Source: Bdellovibrionales bacterium (GTDB taxonomy: Bacteria; Bdellovibrionota; Bdellovibrionia; Bdellovibrionales; UBA1609). Taken from it: a stretch of DNA of 32,000 nt. A model generated the notes under the pieces. It made no database searches. It was not told where the DNA came from and worked only from the letters and a program-made list of their open reading frames with translations. The stretch lies in contig OY843585.1 of the NCBI GenBank assembly GCA_963692945.1, positions 930,001-962,000 of the forward strand, given 5' to 3'. This document shows, one piece after another, positions 7,848 to 24,585 of this stretch (its first letter is position 1; each line of letters opens with the position of its first letter). A program made the translations under genes and the position numbers.

Positions 7848-8962
7848 TTATTGGTGTTCCAAAAGAAATTAAAAACTCAGAATATAGAGTGGGTTTAACA
7901 GAGACTAATGTTGGTTCTCTTGTGGAAAAAGGTCATAAAGTTTTAATTCAAAAAGGGGCTGGAGAAGGTTGTCAAATTTTTGATGAAGCTTATAAGAAAG
8001 TAGGAGCTCATTTAGTTGATACTCTTTCTGAAGTTTATAAAAATTCAGATATGATAGTGAAAGTTAAAGAACCTCTTGTAGAAGAGTATGATCTTTTTAA
8101 AGAGAATCAAATCTTATTTACTTTTTTGCATTTGGCAGCTGAATCTAAACTCACAGATGTTTTATGTTCTAAAAAAGTTAAAGCTGTTGCTTATGAAACT
8201 ATAGAAAATGAAGATGGAGAACTGCCTCTTTTGAAACCTATGAGTCAAGTTGCAGGAAGAGTTGGTCTTCAAAATGGAATTTATTATCTTCAAAAACACA
8301 ATGGAGGCAAGGGGGTTTTAGCAGGAGGTATTTCTGGTGTAAAACCGGCTCATATTGTTATTTTAGGAGGAGGAATGGCTGGAATTCATGCGGCTATGAT
8401 GGCTGTGGGATTGGAAGCTAAAGTGACCATTTTAGATATTAGTGAAGATAAGTTAAAGTCTTTAGATCAGTTTTTTGGAGGAAAAGTTAGTATGTTGTTA
8501 TCCAATAAAGAGTCTCTTTCTTCTATTGTAAAAGAAGCAGATCTGTTGATTGGATCGGTTTTGCTTAAGGGTGAAAAGGCTCCAAAATTAGTGACAGAAA
8601 AAATGATTCAAACCATGTCAAAAGATAGTGTTGTCGTTGATATATCTATAGATCAAGGAGGTTGTATAGAAACAGCTCGCCCCACATCTCATGAAAAACC
8701 AACTTATAAAGTTCATGATGTGATTCACTATTGTGTTCCTAATATACCAAGTTCTGTATCTAGAACTTCAACTTATGCTTTAACAAATGTGAGTTATCCT
8801 TATGTGTTAGAGATTGCTGAACAAAATTTGGAAGTTGCTATTAAAAATAATTTGGGACTGAGTAAGGGGTTAAATACTTATGGGGGGCATGTGACTTATC
8901 TTCCTGTTTCTAAAGCTCTTAATAAGGAATACAAATCTTTTCAAGATGTAGGTTTTCTCTAG
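7844..8962 (+). CDS. ald: Alanine dehydrogenase
   Basis: MIIGVPKEIKNSEYRVGLT N-terminus and NAD-binding VILGGGMAGIHAA. The TTG start at 7844 overlaps the ruvB TGA (TTGA), suggesting translational coupling. The last 15 nt (8948-8962) are identical to the repeat unit at 11111-11125. Confidence 0.9.
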   Translation: MIIGVPKEIKNSEYRVGLTETNVGSLVEKGHKVLIQKGAGEGCQIFDEAYKKVGAHLVDTLSEVYKNSDMIVKVKEPLVEEYDLFKENQILFTFLHLAAESKLTDVLCSKKVKAVAYETIENEDGELPLLKPMSQVAGRVGLQNGIYYLQKHNGGKGVLAGGISGVKPAHIVILGGGMAGIHAAMMAVGLEAKVTILDISEDKLKSLDQFFGGKVSMLLSNKESLSSIVKEADLLIGSVLLKGEKAPKLVTEKMIQTMSKDSVVVDISIDQGGCIETARPTSHEKPTYKVHDVIHYCVPNIPSSVSRTSTYALTNVSYPYVLEIAEQNLEVAIKNNLGLSKGLNTYGGHVTYLPVSKALNKEYKSFQDVGFL

Positions 8963-9086
8963 GAATACCCTCATGCAAAAACCAGTAGGTTTTCTCTATG
9001 AAACTCTACTTATTTTCTGAACTTGAAGAGTGTCCCTTTTACGATGAAAGGTCAGAAAATAAGTAGAGTAACACTAGAGTTTTGTA
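8963..9086. repeat. Composite structured repeat, copy R1 (left part truncated)
   Basis: It contains a 25-nt unit at 8975-8999 (gcaaaaaccagtaggttttctctat), hairpin A at 9003-9069 and the terminal motif actagagttttgta at 9073-9086. It is near-identical to 11184-11300. Confidence 0.9.
9003..9069. repeat. Hairpin A, copy 1: perfect 18-bp stem and 31-nt loop
   Basis: actctacttattttctga (9003-9020) is the exact reverse complement of tcagaaaataagtagagt (9052-9069). The loop is acttgaagagtgtcccttttacgatgaaagg. Confidence 0.9.
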
Positions 9087-9140
9087 AAACAGGCATGGTT
9101 TTTGCATATAGTTTATGGTAAACTAAAAAAAGGAGAAATA

Positions 9141-9740
9141 ATGAGTAATAAATCTACTGTTTTAGAGGCTAAAGCTTATTTTGCAGAAATTTGGAAACTT
9201 TTCAACGAGCAAAAAGAGTACGATAAACAAACGGCAATGGAGCGAAAAGAATATGAAAAAAAAGCAGCAGAAGATATTAAAGAGCTCCGAGCTAGCCTAA
9301 AAGCGACTGACCTAAAATTCAATGGTCACTGGGGTAAGTTGATGGAGACTTTAGTTGAAGGAGATTTAGTGAAACTTCTAAAACAAAAAGGTATCCAAGT
9401 TGATCGGACGGCAACAAATATACTGAAAAAACACGGGGAACAACAATTTGAATTTGATATTTTAGCTTTCAATGGGGAAGAGATCGTTGTTGTAGAAGTG
9501 AAAACAACTTTAGATATTAAAGAGTTGAATTATTTCATTAAGAAATTAAATAGAGTTACGGATTTTATGCCAGAATTTAAAGGTAAAAAAGTTTATGGAG
9601 CCGTTGCGTATTTAAAAGCCAACCAATCTTCTGACAAAAGAGCTGAGAAAGAGGGTTTGTTTGTGATAAGAGCGACAGGAAGCAGTTCCAGTATTGTTAA
9701 TAAGCAGAGTTTTAAACCCAAAGCTTTTACAAAACTCTAG
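9141..9740 (+). CDS. PD-(D/E)XK (restriction-endonuclease fold) nuclease-like protein with N-terminal charged coiled-coil
   Basis: FEFDILAFNGEEIVVVEVKTTL fits the D...(D/E)xK signature, and the N-terminal 60 aa are K/E-rich and helical. I place the start at ATG 9141, preceded by AGGAG at 9131-9135, whereas the track begins at 9102. The last four codons plus stop (acaaaactctag) lie in the 14-nt repeat motif. Confidence 0.6.
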   Translation: MSNKSTVLEAKAYFAEIWKLFNEQKEYDKQTAMERKEYEKKAAEDIKELRASLKATDLKFNGHWGKLMETLVEGDLVKLLKQKGIQVDRTATNILKKHGEQQFEFDILAFNGEEIVVVEVKTTLDIKELNYFIKKLNRVTDFMPEFKGKKVYGAVAYLKANQSSDKRAEKEGLFVIRATGSSSSIVNKQSFKPKAFTKL

Positions 9741-9903
9741 TTCTTTCCTTTTTATTTTCACGAGATTTGAAGAGCAAAGCCCTTCATGCAAAAACCAGTA
9801 GGTTTTCTCTATGTTAAAACTTTCATTTTCACGAGATTTGAAGAACATCTCTCCTGTGATGAAAAGCTCGTGAAAATGAAAGTTCACACACTAGAGTTTT
9901 GTA
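9728..9903. repeat. Composite structured repeat, copy R2, bounded by perfect 14-bp inverted repeats
   Basis: tacaaaactctagt (9728-9741) is the reverse complement of actagagttttgta (9890-9903). Inside are a half-unit at 9752-9787, a 25-nt unit at 9788-9812 and hairpin B at 9818-9884. Segment 9752-9813 matches 11153-11214 at 61 of 62 positions. Confidence 0.9.
9818..9884. repeat. Hairpin B: perfect 18-bp stem and 31-nt loop, same geometry as hairpin A with a different stem sequence
   Basis: aactttcattttcacgag (9818-9835) is the exact reverse complement of ctcgtgaaaatgaaagtt (9867-9884). The loop atttgaagaacatctctcctgtgatgaaaag shares TTGAAGA and GATGAAA(A)G with the hairpin A loop. Confidence 0.9.
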
Positions 9904-9989
9904 GATGTCTTCTCAAGACGATTTACTCTTTTGAGAAGTGAATTTAGATTCTCTTTGAGAGATTCATTTTCTTTTTGAGGGTTCACGAG
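9891..9989 (-). pseudogene. Relic of the 3' end of a tail-fibre-like gene (about 30 codons plus stop)
   Basis: 9891-9976 aligns by eye without gaps to 11288-11373, with 7 mismatches in about 86 nt. It translates as ...ENESLKENLNSLLKRVNRLEKTSTKL*, against ...KENTSLKENLNSLIKRVNRLEKTTTKL* for the intact gene. An in-frame upstream stop lies at 9990-9992. Confidence 0.8.
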
Positions 9990-10173
9990 TTAAAAAGGTT
10001 TTACCTATGTGACTTCTTAATTAGCGAAACAGAGAGAGGATTCATTCTCACGCAAACAAAAAAATTTTATATTCCTGTCTATTCTATGTACAAAAAAACC
10101 CGACTAAGATAAAGGAAAAAAGACTTTCTTGGTTTATACAAGATCATCCAGTTACTTATAAAAACAGAGAATA

Positions 10174-10845
10174 TCAAGACCAGTTTTTTGGCTTGAACAT
10201 TCCATTGACTCTATTGGGAAATTGACTTTCTTTTAAATGACTTTCTTTCAACCTTAAGGTCTTATTTGATATTCTTCTTAAATCCATATGAGTTTCCACC
10301 TTAAAGGGTGTAATGACTACTATTTTCTTCCTTAATTTGTTCCGAGCAAATCTAAGAGGCAATTTTAAATCTGTATCATTTGACAATAATACTACATAGT
10401 CCACGTTTCCCTTACAACAATCATATATAATATGTGTCGCTATATTAACATCTGTTTCTTTTTCTTCGTGCTTAGGAAATTGAAAGATACTTCCTCTTAA
10501 AAGGCTCTTTATTTGCTCTAAGTTTTTAGAGTTCCCTTGCAAAATAGACAATCTTTCTATTTGGTTATTTTTTATTTTTATATGTCTTTTTTTGAACTTA
10601 CCATAAACTATTTCAACTTTTTGAAGAGTCCTTAGAGCAGTTAACCATACATTCTGGTTTTGTGTTGAGTTTGAAAATGGAGTTTTAGCTGTAAAATATT
10701 TTATTTTAATTATCTTATTTAAAGAAGGATCTAAAACAAGGCTAATAAGTTTCTCTATGTTAAGCCATTTATAGGGAGTATCTTTTAATGAATAATAGAG
10801 GTTAAATCCGTCAATATAAACAATGGTATTAGAAGTAGGGAGCAT
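10174..10845 (-). CDS. NYN-domain (PIN-like/LabA-like) predicted ribonuclease
   Basis: IVYIDGFNLYY N-terminal acidic motif, EKETDVNIATHIIYD, and DYVVLLSNDTDLKLPLRFAR followed by KKIVVITP. This order of conserved Asp motifs is typical of NYN domains. Confidence 0.75.
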   Translation of the reverse strand: MLPTSNTIVYIDGFNLYYSLKDTPYKWLNIEKLISLVLDPSLNKIIKIKYFTAKTPFSNSTQNQNVWLTALRTLQKVEIVYGKFKKRHIKIKNNQIERLSILQGNSKNLEQIKSLLRGSIFQFPKHEEKETDVNIATHIIYDCCKGNVDYVVLLSNDTDLKLPLRFARNKLRKKIVVITPFKVETHMDLRRISNKTLRLKESHLKESQFPNRVNGMFKPKNWS

Positions 10846-10859
10846 AAATATTTGGCCAT

Positions 10860-10889
10860 AAAAAAACGAAGGCGATCTTTCAATCGCCT
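10860..10889 (-). terminator. Rho-independent terminator-like hairpin ending 15 nt upstream of the NYN start codon
   Basis: The minus strand reads AGGCGAT-TGAAAG-ATCGCCT (7-bp GC-rich stem, 10870-10876 and 10883-10889), then TCG and T7 (A7 at 10860-10866 on +). Confidence 0.6.
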
Positions 10890-10928
10890 CGCACCTCCCA
10901 GCCGTAGCCGAAGAGGGAAATCACTACT

Positions 10929-10956
10929 AGTATATATACACTAGATAAAAAGTCAA
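10929..10956 (-). promoter_or_regulatory. Sigma70-like promoter TTGACT-N16-TATACT
   Basis: On the minus strand the -35 TTGACT is at 10956-10951 and the -10 TATACT at 10934-10929. It would start a transcript of about 60 nt that runs into the terminator at 10860-10889. Confidence 0.45.
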
Positions 10957-11014
10957 ATCTTATCTTCTTATCTTAATTTTAACATATTTACACTATATGT
11001 TATCGGACTATTAT

Positions 11015-11125
11015 CTGAAAAACTTAAGTTTTTCTCTAGAAATACCTTTTGCGAAAACCAGTAAGATTTCTCTAAGCGAAAACCAGTAAGATTTCTCTAA
11101 GCGAAAACCAGTAGGTTTTCTCTAG
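11015..11125. repeat. Tandem array of the 25-nt mini-hairpin unit (one diverged plus three head-to-tail copies)
   Basis: Unit at 11015-11039 is ctgaaaaacttaagtttttctctag. Units at 11051-11075 and 11076-11100 are both gcgaaaaccagtaagatttctctaa. Unit at 11101-11125 is gcgaaaaccagtaggttttctctag. There are no spacers between the last three. Confidence 0.9.
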
Positions 11126-11150
11126 TTCAAACATAAGTTTATTAAGTAAC

Positions 11151-11300
11151 TCTTATTTTCACGAGATTTGAAGAGCAAAGCCCTTCATGCGAAAACCAGT
11201 AGGTTTTCTCTATGAAACTCTACTTATTTTCTGAACTTGAAGAGTGTCCCTCTTACGATGAAAGGTCAGAAAATAAGTAGAGTAACACTAGAGTTTTGTA
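11151..11300. repeat. Composite structured repeat, copy R3 (full length)
   Basis: It contains a half-unit at 11153-11188, a 25-nt unit at 11189-11213, hairpin A at 11217-11283 and the terminal motif actagagttttgta at 11287-11300, which holds the fibre gene stop. Confidence 0.9.
11217..11283. repeat. Hairpin A, copy 2: perfect 18-bp stem and 31-nt loop
   Basis: 11217-11234 is the reverse complement of 11266-11283. The loop differs from copy 1 at one base (ctctt versus ctttt), a position that could pair with aagag within the loop (G-C versus G-U). Confidence 0.9.
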
Positions 11301-13435
11301 GTTGTCTTCTCAAGACGATTCACTCTTTTGATAAGTGAGTTTAGATTCTCTTTAAGAGATGTATTTTCTTTTTTCAAAGAAGTGAGTTCTCTTTCTAGTT
11401 TTTTATTTGTAGATGCTAATTTCTTCTTTGTTTGAAGTTGTGTCTCTTTTAGTTTTTTTGTCATTTCTTTTGTGGTGGTTTTTACATCATCTGAAGTTTG
11501 TTTAAGTTTAATTTTTGTTTCTTCAATTTGACTTTGGCTCGCTCCCAACTCTTTTTTAACAGTTAAAAACTCTGTTTGAAAAGTCTTTTTTAAATCAGCT
11601 AGAGATTTTGTAAGAGCCGATACAGACTCTTTAAGAAAGTTTAGAGTTTTTGTTGTGGAGCCATAAAATTCTTTAAAGGCTTTTATGATAACAGGAATAA
11701 GCCCTTGATAGTTTAAACTTAAAGTCTTTTTTGGATCTGAACCTTCCAACACTAACTCTGGGTATTCTTTTTGAACCTCTTGAGCAATAAGACCTATCTG
11801 TTTTGTTTGAACTTTATGTTTGTCTTTCCAGTAAAAAGTTTTTGGGTTTAATTTTAAAAGAGAATGGCTTTGATTTTTTAAATCCTTTATCTTGGTTTTG
11901 AGTCTTCGGTCTGATGATGTTTCTGGGAAAAGCCATGCAGGAAGAGTAGGAGAAGACACATTGGTATCCAAGGTGAAATAATCTGAAATACGTCCCGGAG
12001 TAGTAGTAGATTTTTTAACCTTTAATTCGCCATCTATAATCAAATCCCCATGTATTGTAACTTGTCTTTCATCAACTACAACAGGGGCAGTTTCATACCT
12101 TAAATTCCCTGTGATTAAACCACCGATATCTAGTTTGTAACTTTCATCTTCACAAGCAACAGATTTACAGCCAGATCTATGTCCAATAGCAATATTATTA
12201 CTTCCAGTTTTGTTTAAAAGACCTGCAAAGGATCCAAAAAAATTGTTCTCTCTTCCAGTTGTGTTTCCAGTACCTGCAAAGAATCCAAAAAAACTATTCT
12301 TATGTCCACCTATGTTTTGACCACCTGCAAAGGATCCAAAAAAATTGTTCTCTTTTCCAGTTGTGTTTCCAATACCTGCACCACTTCCAAAAAAACTGTT
12401 ACTATCTCCAGTTTCGTTTGTATAACCTGCTTCATATCCAAAAAAACTGTTATTATTTCCAGTTATGTTTGAATAACCTGCACCACTTCCAAAGAAATTG
12501 TTATACTTTCCACCTATGTTTGCACGACCCGCTTGATTTCCAAAAAAACTGTTATTATGTCCACTTGTGTTTGCACGACCTGCAAGGTATCCAAAAAAAC
12601 TGTTAACACCTCCAGTTGTGTTTGAAAGACCTGCACTCCTTCCAAAAAAACTGTTCCACTTTCCACCTGTGTTTTCATGACCTGCTTTATAACCCACAAA
12701 AGTATTCCCTTCACCTGTGTTTGTTGAATTAAGTCTTTTTGTTGATTTCCCTGCTCCAAAACCAAAAGCCGTGTGCTTATCTACACTTACCTCTGTTGTA
12801 TCTCCACAACCAACTAAGCTTAAACTTAATTCACCTGTAGAATCATCTGTCACTTTATAACAATTTGGATTCCCACTCCCACCAACAACTGCATCACCAC
12901 AAACATTTTTAGCATAAGTCAAAGTGGTTGTATCAGCTATGATTAACTCTACCACTTTTTCCACCTCTGTTTTTCTGGTTGCATGAGTAGTAGCTGGTAA
13001 AGCATCTATCTGTGTCTGTATATTTGTAGGAAGACCAGACTTCCCATCTGCTTTATCAATAATTTCTTCATAAAAAAGAGAACAGCATTGAGTGGCTTTT
13101 ACTGGAATATTAAAATCCCATTCTGAACTCAAAGTTCCTGTCCCTCCTGTTAAGTGAATGATTTTAGGTCTTTTTTCATCTGGCACAGCTGTTTTACAAT
13201 CTATTAAATGTTTATCGGTTGCTAAATTAGGATCACACTTCCTAAAATTAAATGTCCAACCTGTTGGTTTATTTGGAGTATAACTATTTAATATGCTTAA
13301 ACATTTTTTACCAGCCTCTGTGTTTGTTAAATTATCTTCACTTGCAAACCTGTCTATAATGGATTGAGATTGAATCACTTTCCAAAGTTCAGTATTAGAA
13401 TCTTTTATTTTTTTTTGTGAAGTGGATTGTTGCAT
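11288..13435 (-). CDS. Phage-tail-fibre-like surface protein. It has a Cys-containing N-terminal region, ten 17-aa NSFFGxxAGxxNTxGxx repeats, an S74-type intramolecular chaperone (autoprocessing) domain and a coiled-coil tail.
   Basis: The repeats are read directly from the translation. SSDRRLKTKIKDL...QIGLIAQEVQKEYPELV...LNYQGLIPVIIKAFKE matches the SDxRxK...GxIAQEV..P..V pattern of the tail-spike/endosialidase C-terminal chaperone domain. The annotated Met is probably not the true start (see the 13436-13671 segment). Confidence 0.8.
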   Translation of the reverse strand: MQQSTSQKKIKDSNTELWKVIQSQSIIDRFASEDNLTNTEAGKKCLSILNSYTPNKPTGWTFNFRKCDPNLATDKHLIDCKTAVPDEKRPKIIHLTGGTGTLSSEWDFNIPVKATQCCSLFYEEIIDKADGKSGLPTNIQTQIDALPATTHATRKTEVEKVVELIIADTTTLTYAKNVCGDAVVGGSGNPNCYKVTDDSTGELSLSLVGCGDTTEVSVDKHTAFGFGAGKSTKRLNSTNTGEGNTFVGYKAGHENTGGKWNSFFGRSAGLSNTTGGVNSFFGYLAGRANTSGHNNSFFGNQAGRANIGGKYNNFFGSGAGYSNITGNNNSFFGYEAGYTNETGDSNSFFGSGAGIGNTTGKENNFFGSFAGGQNIGGHKNSFFGFFAGTGNTTGRENNFFGSFAGLLNKTGSNNIAIGHRSGCKSVACEDESYKLDIGGLITGNLRYETAPVVVDERQVTIHGDLIIDGELKVKKSTTTPGRISDYFTLDTNVSSPTLPAWLFPETSSDRRLKTKIKDLKNQSHSLLKLNPKTFYWKDKHKVQTKQIGLIAQEVQKEYPELVLEGSDPKKTLSLNYQGLIPVIIKAFKEFYGSTTKTLNFLKESVSALTKSLADLKKTFQTEFLTVKKELGASQSQIEETKIKLKQTSDDVKTTTKEMTKKLKETQLQTKKKLASTNKKLERELTSLKKENTSLKENLNSLIKRVNRLEKTTTKL
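12170..12706 (-). repeat. In-frame 51-bp (17-codon) tandem repeats within the fibre gene
   Basis: ccaaaaaaa(c/t)tgtt...cctgca units recur every 51 nt on the + strand. They generate the shadow ORFs 12259-12606 (+) and 12514-12765 (-). Confidence 0.85.
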
Positions 13436-13671
13436 AATAGATGTCCCAACTCCTAAAATAACGATAGCCCCTATTGCCGATGCAATAACAACACTAATAA
13501 TAGCAGAACCTTTTTGATTTAAATAAGAAGGGTTGTTGTTTTTTAAAAGAAAGGAAAGTTTGTGAAATAAAAGAAATTTACATTTTAAAAGTAAATGGGG
13601 GGGGGGGGTAGAAAGATTTTTTTAAAATAAAAAAGAGATTTTCTAGCTCTAGATTTAAAAGCTTTTTTCAT
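13436..13671 (-). other. Out-of-frame 5' segment of the fibre gene: start codon, basic N-terminus, poly-Pro and transmembrane helix
   Basis: ATG 13671 gives MKKAFKSRARKSLFYFKKIFLPPPPIYF, with a stop at 13585. In the fibre frame, 13596-13436 is open and encodes HLLLKCKFLLFHKLSFLLKNNNPSYLNQKGSAIISVVIASAIGAIVILGVGTSI directly before Met 13435. Confidence 0.7.
13597..13608 (-). repeat. G12 (C12 on the coding strand) homopolymer, a candidate slipped-strand phase-variation tract
   Basis: Counted directly: gggg at 13597-13600 plus gggggggg at 13601-13608. Confidence 0.95.
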
Positions 13672-13677
13672 AGATAA

Positions 13678-13706
13678 ATTATGAAGAAGGTTTTAAAAAA
13701 TATCAA
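13678..13706 (-). promoter_or_regulatory. Candidate promoter TTGATA-N17-CATAAT ending 6 nt before ATG 13671 (possible leaderless transcript)
   Basis: On the minus strand the -35 is at 13706-13701 and the -10 at 13683-13678. No Shine-Dalgarno lies between the -10 and the ATG. Confidence 0.35.
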
Positions 13707-13708
13707 CC

Positions 13709-13803
13709 CTAATTTTTCTAGAAGAAAGTAGGGCAAGTAAAGAAAAATCAGCCTATCTAATTTTTCTAGAAGAAAGTAGGGCAAGTAAAGAAAAATCAGC
13801 CTA
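13709..13803. repeat. Perfect 47-nt direct duplication with a 48-nt period
   Basis: ctaatttttctagaagaaagtagggcaagtaaagaaaaatcagccta occurs at 13709-13755 and again at 13757-13803, between the E1-beta stop and the fibre promoter. Confidence 0.95.
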
Positions 13804-13856
13804 AAACCTATAGTTTAGTCACTCACCTAGCAAATTAAGTCAAAATCTAAAAAACA

Positions 13857-21010: not shown

Positions 21011-21856
21011 CTATTTATAATTGGAAATTAAATTTTTTGGACCACTTTCAAATAAAACCTCTAAACGATTATTTTTAGAAGATAAAATAAAACCCCAGCC
21101 AAAAGTCTTATGTTGGAGGCCGCTATGCGTCTCAAAGCTTTTTTCCATACTGTATGAAAAAGTTTTTTGATTTTTATATTCTTGATACAGAGTTTCCCAA
21201 TTTACATTTCCAAGATTAGGAAGATGTACTTTTGTTGAAATGGTTTTTTTAGCGAAATCTTTTTTAGGAGGCTTTGTTGCTTTAGCAGTTACTTTATTTG
21301 ATTTTTTAGGGAGTGTCGTTGTCTTAGCAGTTGATTTAGCAGTTACTTTATTTGATTTTTTAGGGAGTGTTGTTGCTTTAGCAGTTACTTTATTTGATTT
21401 TTTAGGGAGTGTTGTTGCTTTAGCAGTTACTTTATTTGACTTTTTAGGGAGTGTCGTTGTCTTAGCAGTTGCTTTAGCAGTTACTTTATTTGATTTTTTA
21501 GGGAGTGTTGTTGTCTTAGCAGTTGCTTTAGCAGTTACTTTATTTGATTTTTTAGGGAGTGTCGTTGTCTTAGCAGTTGATTTAGTGGTGAGTTTATTTG
21601 ATTTTTTAGGAGGTTTTGTTGTTTTAGCAGTTGCTTTAGCAGTGGTTTTCTTTGATTTTTTAGGAGGCATTGTTGCTTTAGCAGTTGATTTAGCAGTTAC
21701 TTTCTTTGATTTTTTAGGAGGTTTTGTTGATTTAGCAGTTACTTTAGCAGTGGATTTCTTTGACTTTTTAAGAGGCTTTGTTGTTTTAGTAGATCTGAGT
21801 TTTTTATTGCTCTGATTCTTTTTTACTTTTTTAGTTGTTTTTTGCTTTGTAGTCAT
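21011..21856 (-). CDS. Histone-H1-like Lys/Ala/Thr/Pro repeat protein with a C-terminal Tudor-like domain resembling the UvrD/PcrA C-terminus
   Basis: The N-terminal ~195 aa are (T)AKTTTLPKKSNKVTAKA-type repeats. The C-terminal GLQHKTFGWGFILSSKNNRLEVLFESGPKNLISNY fits G..(V).H..FG.G.(V)......(L).V.F..G.K.L...Y. It lies 9 nt upstream of infA. Confidence 0.7.
   Translation of the reverse strand: MTTKQKTTKKVKKNQSNKKLRSTKTTKPLKKSKKSTAKVTAKSTKPPKKSKKVTAKSTAKATMPPKKSKKTTAKATAKTTKPPKKSNKLTTKSTAKTTTLPKKSNKVTAKATAKTTTLPKKSNKVTAKATAKTTTLPKKSNKVTAKATTLPKKSNKVTAKATTLPKKSNKVTAKSTAKTTTLPKKSNKVTAKATKPPKKDFAKKTISTKVHLPNLGNVNWETLYQEYKNQKTFSYSMEKSFETHSGLQHKTFGWGFILSSKNNRLEVLFESGPKNLISNYK
21271..21800 (-). repeat. 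In-frame tandem repeats (54-bp and 42-bp units) encoding the Lys-rich repeats
   Basis: Near-identical agcagttactttatttgattttttagggagtgt(c/t)gttg... units are visible on the + strand. They create the antisense shadow ORF 21240-21815. Confidence 0.85.
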
Positions 21857-23502: not shown

Positions 23503-24585
23503 TTATTCCCAATCATTTCTATTTTCTAGACGATTTTGAGATGGAATATGGTTTTGTTCAGCGGCTTTTTGATACCAGTAAAAAGCTTCTTTATTCATAT
23601 CATATTCATAGTCATGTTCATAGATATCACCTAATTCATATTGAGCATAAGTGAAGTTTTGTTTGGCTGCTCGTTTCATCCAATAGATCGCTTTTTCATA
23701 ATTTTGAGGAACTCCCTTCCCCTCAAGGTACATACGACTTAATTCATATTGAGCTATGGCTAAATCTTGGTTTGATGATTTTTCATACCAATAAAAGGCT
23801 CTCTGATAATGTCTAGGTATATATTTTTTATGGTAGTAGATATGTGCTAATTGATATTGAGCATAAGCAGAGCCTTCCTCTGATAGTTTTTTAAGTTTTT
23901 GAATTTCTCTTTCCATGTAAAGGTTTAAATTAAAATAATATCTGACTTTCTCTTCTAGAAGATTTCTGAGGTTATCTATTTTTATCATACTTAACATGTT
24001 ATGACTGGATATAAAAAGGATTCCAGCCACTTGGTTTTTTTCGTCTAGCACAGGAGAACCACTGGCTCCAAGCCAAATTATATCTTGATTAACAGGAAAA
24101 GTGTAGAAGACTTCATTGTTATTTATGAGAGGGCCTGTTTTTTCTGCTATTGTAAGGAAGCCTTTAGGGTAACCTATTACAGAAAGTTTCTCCGTAGGAA
24201 GTGGTTGTTCCTTTTTTAGTGTTAAATAATTTTCAACCTCCCCATCTATTTTAAGGATTGCTAGATCATGTAGGGAAGATATTTTTTGAATACTTTTTGC
24301 TTTTAATTTTTGAGGGTTATTGTCTTGCGATAGAATAATGTGATCAATACGATTTCTTTGCGATAAGTTATCTAAGATATGGAAATTAGTAACAAATTGA
24401 TTTGGACTTATGAAGAATCCAGTTCCTTGTGTGGTTTGACTGTTTATTTTCCATATATATTCTTTTATATTTGGTGTAGTGGTTTTTGGAGTTTTGGAAA
24501 ACACTGTATTGCAAGTAGAGATGGGGGGGGGTGTAGCAAAAGAAATATTTGAGAAAAGAAAATATAAAAAAACAAAAAATATCAT
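23503..24585 (-). CDS. Secreted trypsin-like serine protease fused to C-terminal Sel1-like repeats
   Basis: Signal peptide MIFFVFLYFLFSNISFA. The His, Asp and Ser regions are GTGFFISPNQFVTNFHIL, HDLAILKI and GASGSPVLD. The C-terminus has several AQY(Q/E)L...Y..G.GV...Y..A..WY.KAA Sel1-type repeats. Confidence 0.8.
   Translation of the reverse strand: MIFFVFLYFLFSNISFATPPPISTCNTVFSKTPKTTTPNIKEYIWKINSQTTQGTGFFISPNQFVTNFHILDNLSQRNRIDHIILSQDNNPQKLKAKSIQKISSLHDLAILKIDGEVENYLTLKKEQPLPTEKLSVIGYPKGFLTIAEKTGPLINNNEVFYTFPVNQDIIWLGASGSPVLDEKNQVAGILFISSHNMLSMIKIDNLRNLLEEKVRYYFNLNLYMEREIQKLKKLSEEGSAYAQYQLAHIYYHKKYIPRHYQRAFYWYEKSSNQDLAIAQYELSRMYLEGKGVPQNYEKAIYWMKRAAKQNFTYAQYELGDIYEHDYEYDMNKEAFYWYQKAAEQNHIPSQNRLENRNDWE
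24523..24531 (-). repeat. G9 (C9 on the coding strand) homopolymer encoding PPP right after the signal peptide
   Basis: Counted directly: 8 g at 24523-24530 plus g at 24531, corresponding to codons ccc ccc ccc of ATPPPIST. Confidence 0.95.

Follow-up and report, generated by a model that had tools for sequence, protein, structure and literature searches.

The locus described here raises the question of how a gene for a long fibre protein is started when its annotated start codon lies directly behind an open stretch of the same frame that encodes a hydrophobic helix. The window, a 32,000-nucleotide stretch of contig OY843585.1 from a Bdellovibrionales bacterium, carries this gene on the minus strand. 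Reading from ATG 13671 gives MKKAFKSRARKSLFYFKKIFL-PPPP-IYF and then the TAA at 13587-13585, a frame of 28 codons in which a run of 12 C encodes the prolines. After the TAA at 13624-13622, the fibre frame stays open across the same run, as KNLSTPPPHLLLKCKFLLFHKLSFLLKNNNPSYLNQKGSAIISVVIASAIGAIVILGVGTSI-M13435, and reads KNLSTPPPHLLLKCKFLLFHKLSFLLKNNNPSYLNQKG-SAIISVVIASAIGAIVILGVGTSI-M up to the annotated start; no ATG, GTG, or TTG occurs in it upstream of 13435 back to that TAA. The original prediction had named this start, these prolines, and this stop, and had described the stretch after the tract as open, devoid of a start codon, and encoding a helix that runs into Met 13435. All of this was confirmed, the helix being 24 residues long. 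The features of the region are listed below.

11288..13435, minus strand: annotated 715-aa ORF, the fibre body (Cys-rich N-domain, repeats, S74 domain, coiled-coil tail)
13436..13507, minus strand: hydrophobic helix SAIISVVIASAIGAIVILGVGTSI, 24 residues, homologous by alignment to the prepilin-type helix of distant family members
13508..13597, minus strand: remaining leader in the fibre frame, HLLLKCKFLLFHKLSFLLKNNNPSYLNQKG, without a start codon of its own
13585..13587, minus strand: TAA at which reading from ATG 13671 stops with a tract of 12, leaving a 28-aa OFF product
13597..13608, minus strand: C12 homopolymer (G12 on the plus strand), the slippery element, poly-Pro in either frame
13609..13671, minus strand: ATG start at 13671-13669 with the opening 21 codons, MKKAFKSRARKSLFYFKKIFL, in a register other than that of the fibre body
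13678..13706, minus strand: sigma-70-like promoter match TTGATA-17 nt-CATAAT, 10/12 consensus matches, best match in the region
13709..13803, no strand assigned: perfect 48-bp tandem duplication, 2.0 copies, 100% identity (Tandem Repeats Finder; repeat-family search)

From 13671 to 13435 the spacing is 236 nt (3n+2), as had been stated. We rebuilt the gene in silico with tracts of 8 to 16 C. Products of 793, 794, and 795 aa were obtained at 10, 13, and 16 C, respectively, and peptides of 27-31 aa at 8, 9, 11, 12, 14, and 15 C. Thus, the claim that tracts of 13 or 10 would fuse the start to the fibre was borne out (794 and 793 aa), and the assembled length of 12 has the predicted OFF geometry in silico, within the 27-31-aa peptide class. 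The 794-codon frame is broken once, at the tract, and the rest of the gene is intact. A further run, A9 on the coding strand at 13408-13416 (codons QKKIK), lies nine codons into the annotated ORF and is potentially slippery; its counterpart in the family locus L001 is A7.

The tract itself is exceptional for this DNA, in agreement with the original prediction of a G12/C12 run (13608-13597) in an AT-rich background. GC content of the window is 31.9%, and G12 is its single G/C run of at least 10. Under an iid or first-order Markov model, about 1e-4 or fewer runs of at least 12 are expected in the window, and the longest G/C run in 200 shuffles of the window was 9. An uninterrupted G/C run of about 8 or more counts as hypermutable, and C12 is such a run; it also lies between a start codon and a functional body, the position from which a repeat can toggle the frame.

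We then considered which start codon the gene uses. In the deposited genome, the annotated start of the protein (P0001, 715 aa) is Met 13435. This residue is replaced by Val in three relatives, namely P0002 (a paralogue on the window's contig, 51% identical), P0003, and P0126. The helix lies inside the called protein in all three, behind a leader of 33-41 residues (...NRKGSAIVSVVIASVIGTIVILGVGTSIV and ...SNKGSALVSVIVASAIGAIVILGVGTSIV are examples from this set), and the post-tract leader of the window aligns with their leaders. The closest DNA relative, the 1,143-bp Logan contig L009, differs from the window by six substitutions between tract and helix, and five of these hit the third base of a codon in the fibre frame (p ~0.02); the helix differs by two conservative and two synonymous changes, and the fibre body by 51/36/27 substitutions at codon positions 3/1/2. 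Because the helix and leader lie inside the relatives, Val stands there in place of Met, and substitutions are biased to third positions, we judge the annotated Met 13435 start to be an artefact of annotation. Since the stretch behind the tract codes in the fibre frame, the gene needs a start upstream of the tract.

By comparison with relatives, ATG 13671 is judged to be the authentic start and is the sole start available. The N-terminus of P0126 (locus L008, on a 248-kb contig) reads in one frame as MKKAYKSRESPLHLRNLFLILKRLFLSKDSDLSKDSFLSNKG-SALISVIV..., beginning MKKAYKSRES..RNLFLILKRLFL, which is homologous to MKKAFKSRARKSLFYFKKIFL of the window, and reaching KG/SALIS further on. The window peptide MKKAFKSR matches its MKKAYKSR, and because P0126 begins with MKKAYKSRES... 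in frame, the MKK start is taken to be real. In protein alignments, both ends of the conceptual leader of the window match intact relatives, and the tract lies within a leader insertion of ~15 residues (IFLPPPPHLLLKCKF). At the DNA level, 23/25 nt around the ATG are identical between the window and P0126/L008, and the -35 hexamer TTGATA is common to both.

For the promoter that matches best in the region, the -10 hexamer ends 7 nt upstream of the A in ATG 13671; this match is to be read against an AT-rich stretch in which promoter-like matches show no enrichment. L001 and L008 retain both the -35 TTGATA and a spacing of 6-7 nt between the -10 hexamer and the ATG. This short spacing in the window, L001, and L008 suggests that the fibre mRNA may be leaderless. 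No Shine-Dalgarno sequence precedes ATG 13671, and most window genes are also without one. GGAG is present upstream of ATG 13435. Shine-Dalgarno strength was dropped as a means of separating the two starts, given its lack in most window genes; among window ORFs of at least 100 aa, only 25911 and 30278 have a strong one. The 48-bp tandem duplication (13709-13803) abuts the -35 box and is possibly a regulatory or variable-number element. Tandem repeats of ~33 nt also lie upstream of the fibre gene in L011 (about 1845-1947). Scanning the window with Rfam at gathering thresholds and for tRNA returned no match.

If the tract is a switch, then relatives should bear on it, and we compared the 5' regions of the family. 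A long simple repeat separates an MKK-type start from the helix in seven family loci, the set being C12, at least C9, C10, C19, (CT)20, and (ATTC)23 versus 9. Across the 114 kb formed by the window and twelve loci, there are 8 strong simple repeats, 7 of which lie in family 5' regions; the eighth is a C9 at the signal-peptide end of a protease gene in the window. At the exact tract site of the window, L009 has at least 9 C, with its contig beginning inside the run. Several relatives come from low-coverage long-read metagenome contigs (names like ctg..._1x, _2.75x), and repeat lengths in these are unreliable, which makes their assignment to ON or OFF uncertain.

Other members carry different repeats at the equivalent place. 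The in-frame P0126 gene of L008 has (AG)4, and L001 (P0003) has (AG)5, which puts its start MKKTYKSRER, homologous to that of the window, out of frame. In L001, MKKTYKSRER... runs to a stop, and the gene caller placed a TTG start 35 nt downstream. We had predicted the joined product from L001 beforehand, and P0126 was then found with exactly that form. In L002, ATG-MKKIILCLFFKIPY is followed by C10 and then ...MLKSEQG/FSLVG, in frame throughout. L003 (ERZ19650279) has ATG-MKYFFKKISALLVKSLYLP and (CT)20, out of frame with ...HSKKG/MSLISVIV, and its body frame is open across the repeat. L004 and L007 are paralogues of one Bdellovibrionales MAG (GCA_965243065.1) that begin with GTG-KKFF or GTG-KKSF and continue into (ATTC)n, with 23 units in L004 versus 9 in L007; the difference of 56 nt is not divisible by 3, and flanking identity is ~98%. 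L013 has C19 in a 94-codon ORF (1695-1979) upstream of its fibre gene P0114, which by its sequence looks like a displaced switch module. This ORF also holds a second, truncated pilin-like helix (NK/AFSLIKLLIAISILLI) and stops 21 nt short of the start that belongs to the fibre, where a Shine-Dalgarno sequence is present. The repeat-free members L005, L011, and L012 have ordinary short leaders. More distant members have in common the LVGCGxT junction and a prepilin-like N-terminus.

Length differences among family paralogues are thus seen at (AG)4 versus (AG)5 and at (ATTC)23 versus 9; for the tract of the window itself, L009 is the sole other carrier, with its contig cut inside the run. When scored against the MKK start, 4/5 scorable loci are OFF, where two thirds are expected by chance. 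This fits chance and would also fit an MKK frame that is not normally joined. In L002 and L013, an alternative fibre start lies downstream of the tract, and there the repeat may act on transcription or on the leader ORF instead.

We consider it likely that the C12 run is a contingency-locus phase switch in the leader-peptide coding region of a surface-fibre gene. This reading rests on the frame geometry, on the match of both the start region and the fibre part to relatives with an unbroken gene, on the repeats found at the same leader position, and on the copy-number differences within the family. Transcription from TTGATA-17-CATAAT would begin at or just before ATG 13671, at which ribosomes would initiate. 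With 10, 13, or 16 C (3n+1), MKKAFKSRARKSLFYFKKIFL, poly-Pro, leader, helix, and the whole fibre including S74 would be joined, giving in the ON state a fibre of 793-795 aa, presumably exported or anchored by its helix. With the assembled 12 C, or with 11 or 14 C, translation would stop after 28-31 codons; the OFF state would yield at best a helix-less cytoplasmic product from Met 13435. Slipped-strand mispairing at replication would add or remove one base of the tract, and a clonal population would mix fibre-positive and fibre-negative cells. The ON/OFF interpretation offered in the original prediction is supported by the intact relatives and by repeats at the same site in seven loci. Speaking against a switch are L009, which is cut in the tract and has a frame break at an A7 run, and the closest syntenic relative, L010, which is without the gene. 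The A7 of L009 (57-67) corresponds to A6 in the window (about 13541-13546) and breaks the leader frame between tract and helix. It could be an error, decay, or a second slippery site; otherwise, the leader tolerates more than the switch model assumes.

Other explanations for the frame break were weighed against this switch. One is that the homopolymer was miscounted: the population sequenced would then have a true tract of 13 (or 10) and an unbroken gene, with the tract still mutable. The source is a single 1.56-Mb contig, probably built from long reads, which miscall long homopolymers; all else in the gene is intact, and the relatives, judged by their names, also come from low-coverage long-read metagenome contigs. 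We nevertheless think a miscount unlikely. The sequence itself bears no sign of error, the deposited annotation also starts at Met 13435 (P0001, 715 aa), and out-of-frame states recur at di- and tetranucleotide repeats, which are far less error-prone. A true length of 13 would in any event alter the state of the element and not its nature. Alternatively, a constant low fraction of full-length protein could arise by recoding, through a -1 slip of tRNA-Pro on CCC CCC CCC CCC or through stuttering of RNA polymerase. Four consecutive prolines stall ribosomes (EF-P-dependent poly-Pro stalling). A -1 shift inside the C12 run gives the exact 13-C product. A 1989 paper on gonococcal P.II/Opa, cited in PMC3960869, places ribosomal frameshifting alongside slipped-strand mispairing in its title. 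However, we found no stimulatory structure or conserved heptamer, and the (CT)20, (ATTC)n, and (AG)n of the relatives are not ribosomal slip sites, while their DNA copy number differs. Recoding as the sole explanation is quite improbable, as it would supplement DNA-level switching and not replace it; slippage of the ribosome by -1 or stuttering in transcription may yield a little of the same protein from the 12-C template as background, but leaves the copy-number differences in the DNA of relatives unexplained.

It is also conceivable that the gene is a decaying pseudogene, with a frameshift at a mutational hotspot and no adaptive switching. The gene sits on a 4.9-kb insertion that is absent from a close relative and holds a remnant of the 3' end of another fibre gene, and L009 has its second leader frame break. 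Yet the 794-codon frame is interrupted once only, and the third-position bias against L009 is seen in both the leader (5/6) and the body (51/36/27). That seven loci have repeats at this site speaks for selection acting on mutability, and we regard decay as very improbable. Least credence of all is given to an untranslated tract, one lying in a 5' UTR or promoter and tuning transcription, with the fibre made from a non-canonical codon or from Met 13435. Here the C19 of L013 is 174 nt upstream of a fibre start with a strong Shine-Dalgarno sequence, an internal ATG of L002 gives a typical short prepilin leader, GGAG stands upstream of ATG 13435, and poly-C promoter switches are known, e.g., at Neisseria opc (PMC3960869). 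But the best promoter match lies upstream of ATG 13671 and not around the tract, the stretch between tract and helix is under coding-type constraint, and the MKK start is joined in frame in P0126. Met 13435 is not conserved, and a product begun there would be without the conserved helix.

With translational switching at the tract as the preferred reading, we turned to the protein that it would control. The Cys-rich N-domain closes at an LVGCGDT junction and is followed by ~9 repeats of 17 residues each, NxFFGxxAGxxNTxG (51-nt period, 12201-12685). Peptidase_S74 (PF13884, endosialidase chaperone) was found at aa 508-563 (nt 11747-11914) with 56 bits versus a cut-off of 22, and its catalytic-type motif SDxxxK is present as SDRRLK. 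A Lys/Glu-rich coiled coil forms the C-terminal tail. The repeats and S74 were matched by more than 1,400 proteins, and many of these bear tail-fibre-domain names. The N-terminal third found 14 relatives only, 5 of them below E = 1e-30, in an exhaustive search of 1.84 billion representatives. By its domain content, the protein is classed as an S74-chaperone tail-fibre-like adhesin with a degenerate pilin-like N-terminus.

The helix is conserved in P0002, P0003, P0126, and L009 and aligns with the G/FSLLE and G/FTLIE helices of distant members. Prepilin-like forms are G/FTLIE in P0099 and KGG/FSLLEILVV in the products of L004, L005, and L007. Members of the window's clade have G/SAIIS, without Phe+1 or Glu+5, and the leader of the window is 55 residues long. 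Against PF07963 and TIGR02532, the window protein and P0126 scored below both models, P0099 passed at 25.7 and 20.6 bits, and the extended L004 product passed at 19.3. From these alignments, we describe the helix of the window as a degenerate pilin-like (prepilin-type) helix with putative membrane anchoring. A bona fide prepilin was rejected for the window protein, which departs from the G-1, F/M+1, E+5 motif. No pilus genes were found in the window; N_methyl genes adjoin the fibre gene in L002 and L003. An AlphaFold2 model of the N-domain from a 12-row alignment (pLDDT 49.9, pTM 0.33) did not reach the quality needed for a fold search.

MAT (mosaic adhesive trimer) fibres of Bdellovibrio bacteriovorus carry a Sec signal peptide ahead of a conserved beta-rich N-domain of ~130 aa (PMC10769870), a source that also defines the SDxxxK motif of S74. 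The window protein resembles the S74 subfamily of MAT fibres in its beta-helical repeat fibre, its C-terminal S74 chaperone/protease with SDxxxK, and its broad lineage; in the repeats and S74, hundreds of such proteins are homologous to it. Its N-terminal part sets it apart from MAT fibres: the leader is long, the helix pilin-like, and the Cys-rich N-domain rare (14 relatives). MAT identity was rejected for the window protein, which lacks the Sec signal and the beta-rich N-domain of ~130 aa. Matches with Sec-signal-type N-termini (e.g., ...AQTTAFTYQGKL) cover 23-60% of the query, in the repeats and S74 only; we took such N-termini to be of MAT type, setting MAT apart by its published description and not by direct sequence comparison. 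There is no mention of phase variation or pilin in the MAT paper (PMC10769870). With type IV pilin-like proteins, the window protein has in common a basic leader ending in Gly and then a hydrophobic helix of ~22 residues; it differs from them in its G/SAIIS, its 55-residue leader, and its scores below PF07963 and TIGR02532.

Simple-repeat contingency loci are textbook knowledge for a handful of host-adapted pathogens, and the proposed switch can be set beside several of them. Neisseria Opa genes have CTCTT pentamer repeats in the leader-peptide coding region (PMC3960869). As in Opa, the repeat here lies inside a leader peptide between the start and the mature protein, copy number would set the frame, and the gene encodes a surface adhesin with several paralogues. 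The differences are a homopolymer versus a pentamer, an S74 tail-fibre-like fibre versus a beta-barrel, an uncultured Bdellovibrionota-like host, and a switching behavior that we infer here from sequence. Helicobacter pylori oipA and related outer-membrane protein genes carry CT repeats in their 5' region (PMC10564699). Translational ON/OFF control via slipped-strand mispairing in the 5' coding region, as proposed here, is the common element, and the relative L003 has (CT)20 at the equivalent place; protein class and export route differ, and the fibre switch is predicted from DNA sequence. A poly-G tract in the signal-peptide region of Neisseria pilC is said to have been described by Jonsson et al. 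in 1991. G/C tracts are also known in Campylobacter (PMC8355987). Like these, the window has a poly-G/C tract within the range of ~9-13 in the 5' part of a gene associated with pili or the surface, the genome being AT-rich or neutral; the genes have no sequence relationship to that of the window.

Literature searches for simple-repeat contingency loci in Bdellovibrio-like organisms found no report. The switch mechanism is of a known kind, and the lineage and protein family are new for such a switch, with a signature across the family that is unusually clear. Tail-fibre-like S74 adhesins are proposed prey-recognition devices in the Bdellovibrio lineage (PMC10769870). Five repeat types at the same leader position would imply strong selection for switchable display, and stochastic control of prey or host range becomes directly testable. 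A practical consequence concerns annotation. Gene callers start after the frameshift (Met 13435; P0109, P0081), which hides the targeting helix and makes the proteins look cytoplasmic. In P0109 (L003, 3001) and P0081 (L004, 3001), the called start is at or after the helix because the genuine start lies in another frame. The called starts of P0125, P0248, and P0249 coincide with this point, probably through the same miscall, with P0125 and P0248 likewise beginning just after the helix; the upstream DNA of P0125 ends within the tract.

The 5' ends of these genes also appear to have a history of their own. The 5' modules of L001 and L008 are 87-93% identical from -100 to +300 and ~45-60% outside. 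For L001 3866-4266 versus L008 3901-4301 and for L004 2419-3500 versus L007 1044-2100, identity is 87-100%, and the same genes are ~45-65% identical further upstream and downstream, in different neighbourhoods. Near-identical 5' modules on diverged genes in different neighbourhoods suggest that the modules moved by gene conversion or module exchange. We offer, as a tentative possibility, that small-genome Bdellovibrionota have a portable 5' switch module (promoter, MKK start, repeat, leader, and helix) that recombines among fibre genes, has its own repeat types, and yields stochastic combinations of prey or host fibres, possibly via pilus machinery. If true, this would amount to bet-hedging on target range in predatory or host-associated bacteria. 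Family members from reference genomes sit in Bdellovibrionales MAGs. Metagenome scans for the family and a genome-contig scan with an N-domain profile gave no match. Neither family members nor the DNA of the helix turned up in the viral collections searched, which thus give no hint of origin from a phage.

A 4.9-kb insertion (8963-13856) separates the alanine dehydrogenase gene of the window from that for E1-beta and carries the fibre gene together with an Hjc-like nuclease gene and an NYN-domain gene. The whole insertion is absent from L010 (GCA_029782575.1, RuvB 85% identical), in which the flanking genes abut at 2229/2230; a literature search on assembly GCA_029782575 found no paper. Proteins of Oligoflexia, Bdellovibrionaceae, and Bdellovibrionales MAGs share 65-69% identity with the RuvB encoded in the window, in line with a Bdellovibrionota-like lineage. 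After the fibre stop codon comes a module present in three copies (8940-9090, 9750-9976, and 11027-11373), with 97% identity between 8968-9086 and 11182-11300 and 98% between 9752-9813 and 11153-11214. At 9888-9976, 89 nt match the 3'-terminal 89 nt of the fibre gene with 92% identity and represent the remnant of another fibre gene. Taken together, the three post-fibre modules and this second 3' remnant hint at cassette-like recombination in the insertion. The post-fibre region also contains six copies of TGCRAAAACCAGTARGWTTTCTCTA and hairpins with 22-nt arms.

Two further window genes have repeats of their own. A 281-aa ORF at 21011-21856 (minus strand) consists nearly entirely of 54-nt tandem repeats (9.6 copies, 84% matches) and gave no match to Pfam. 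The second G/C tract of the window is a C9 on the coding strand at 24523-24531, in frame within the ORF at 23503-24585 (minus strand), which encodes a trypsin-like protease with Sel1 repeats. It codes for TPPPI right after a signal-peptide-like N-terminus (MIFFVFLYFLFSNISFA/TPPPISTC) and, judged by this position, is probably a second contingency locus that is currently ON.
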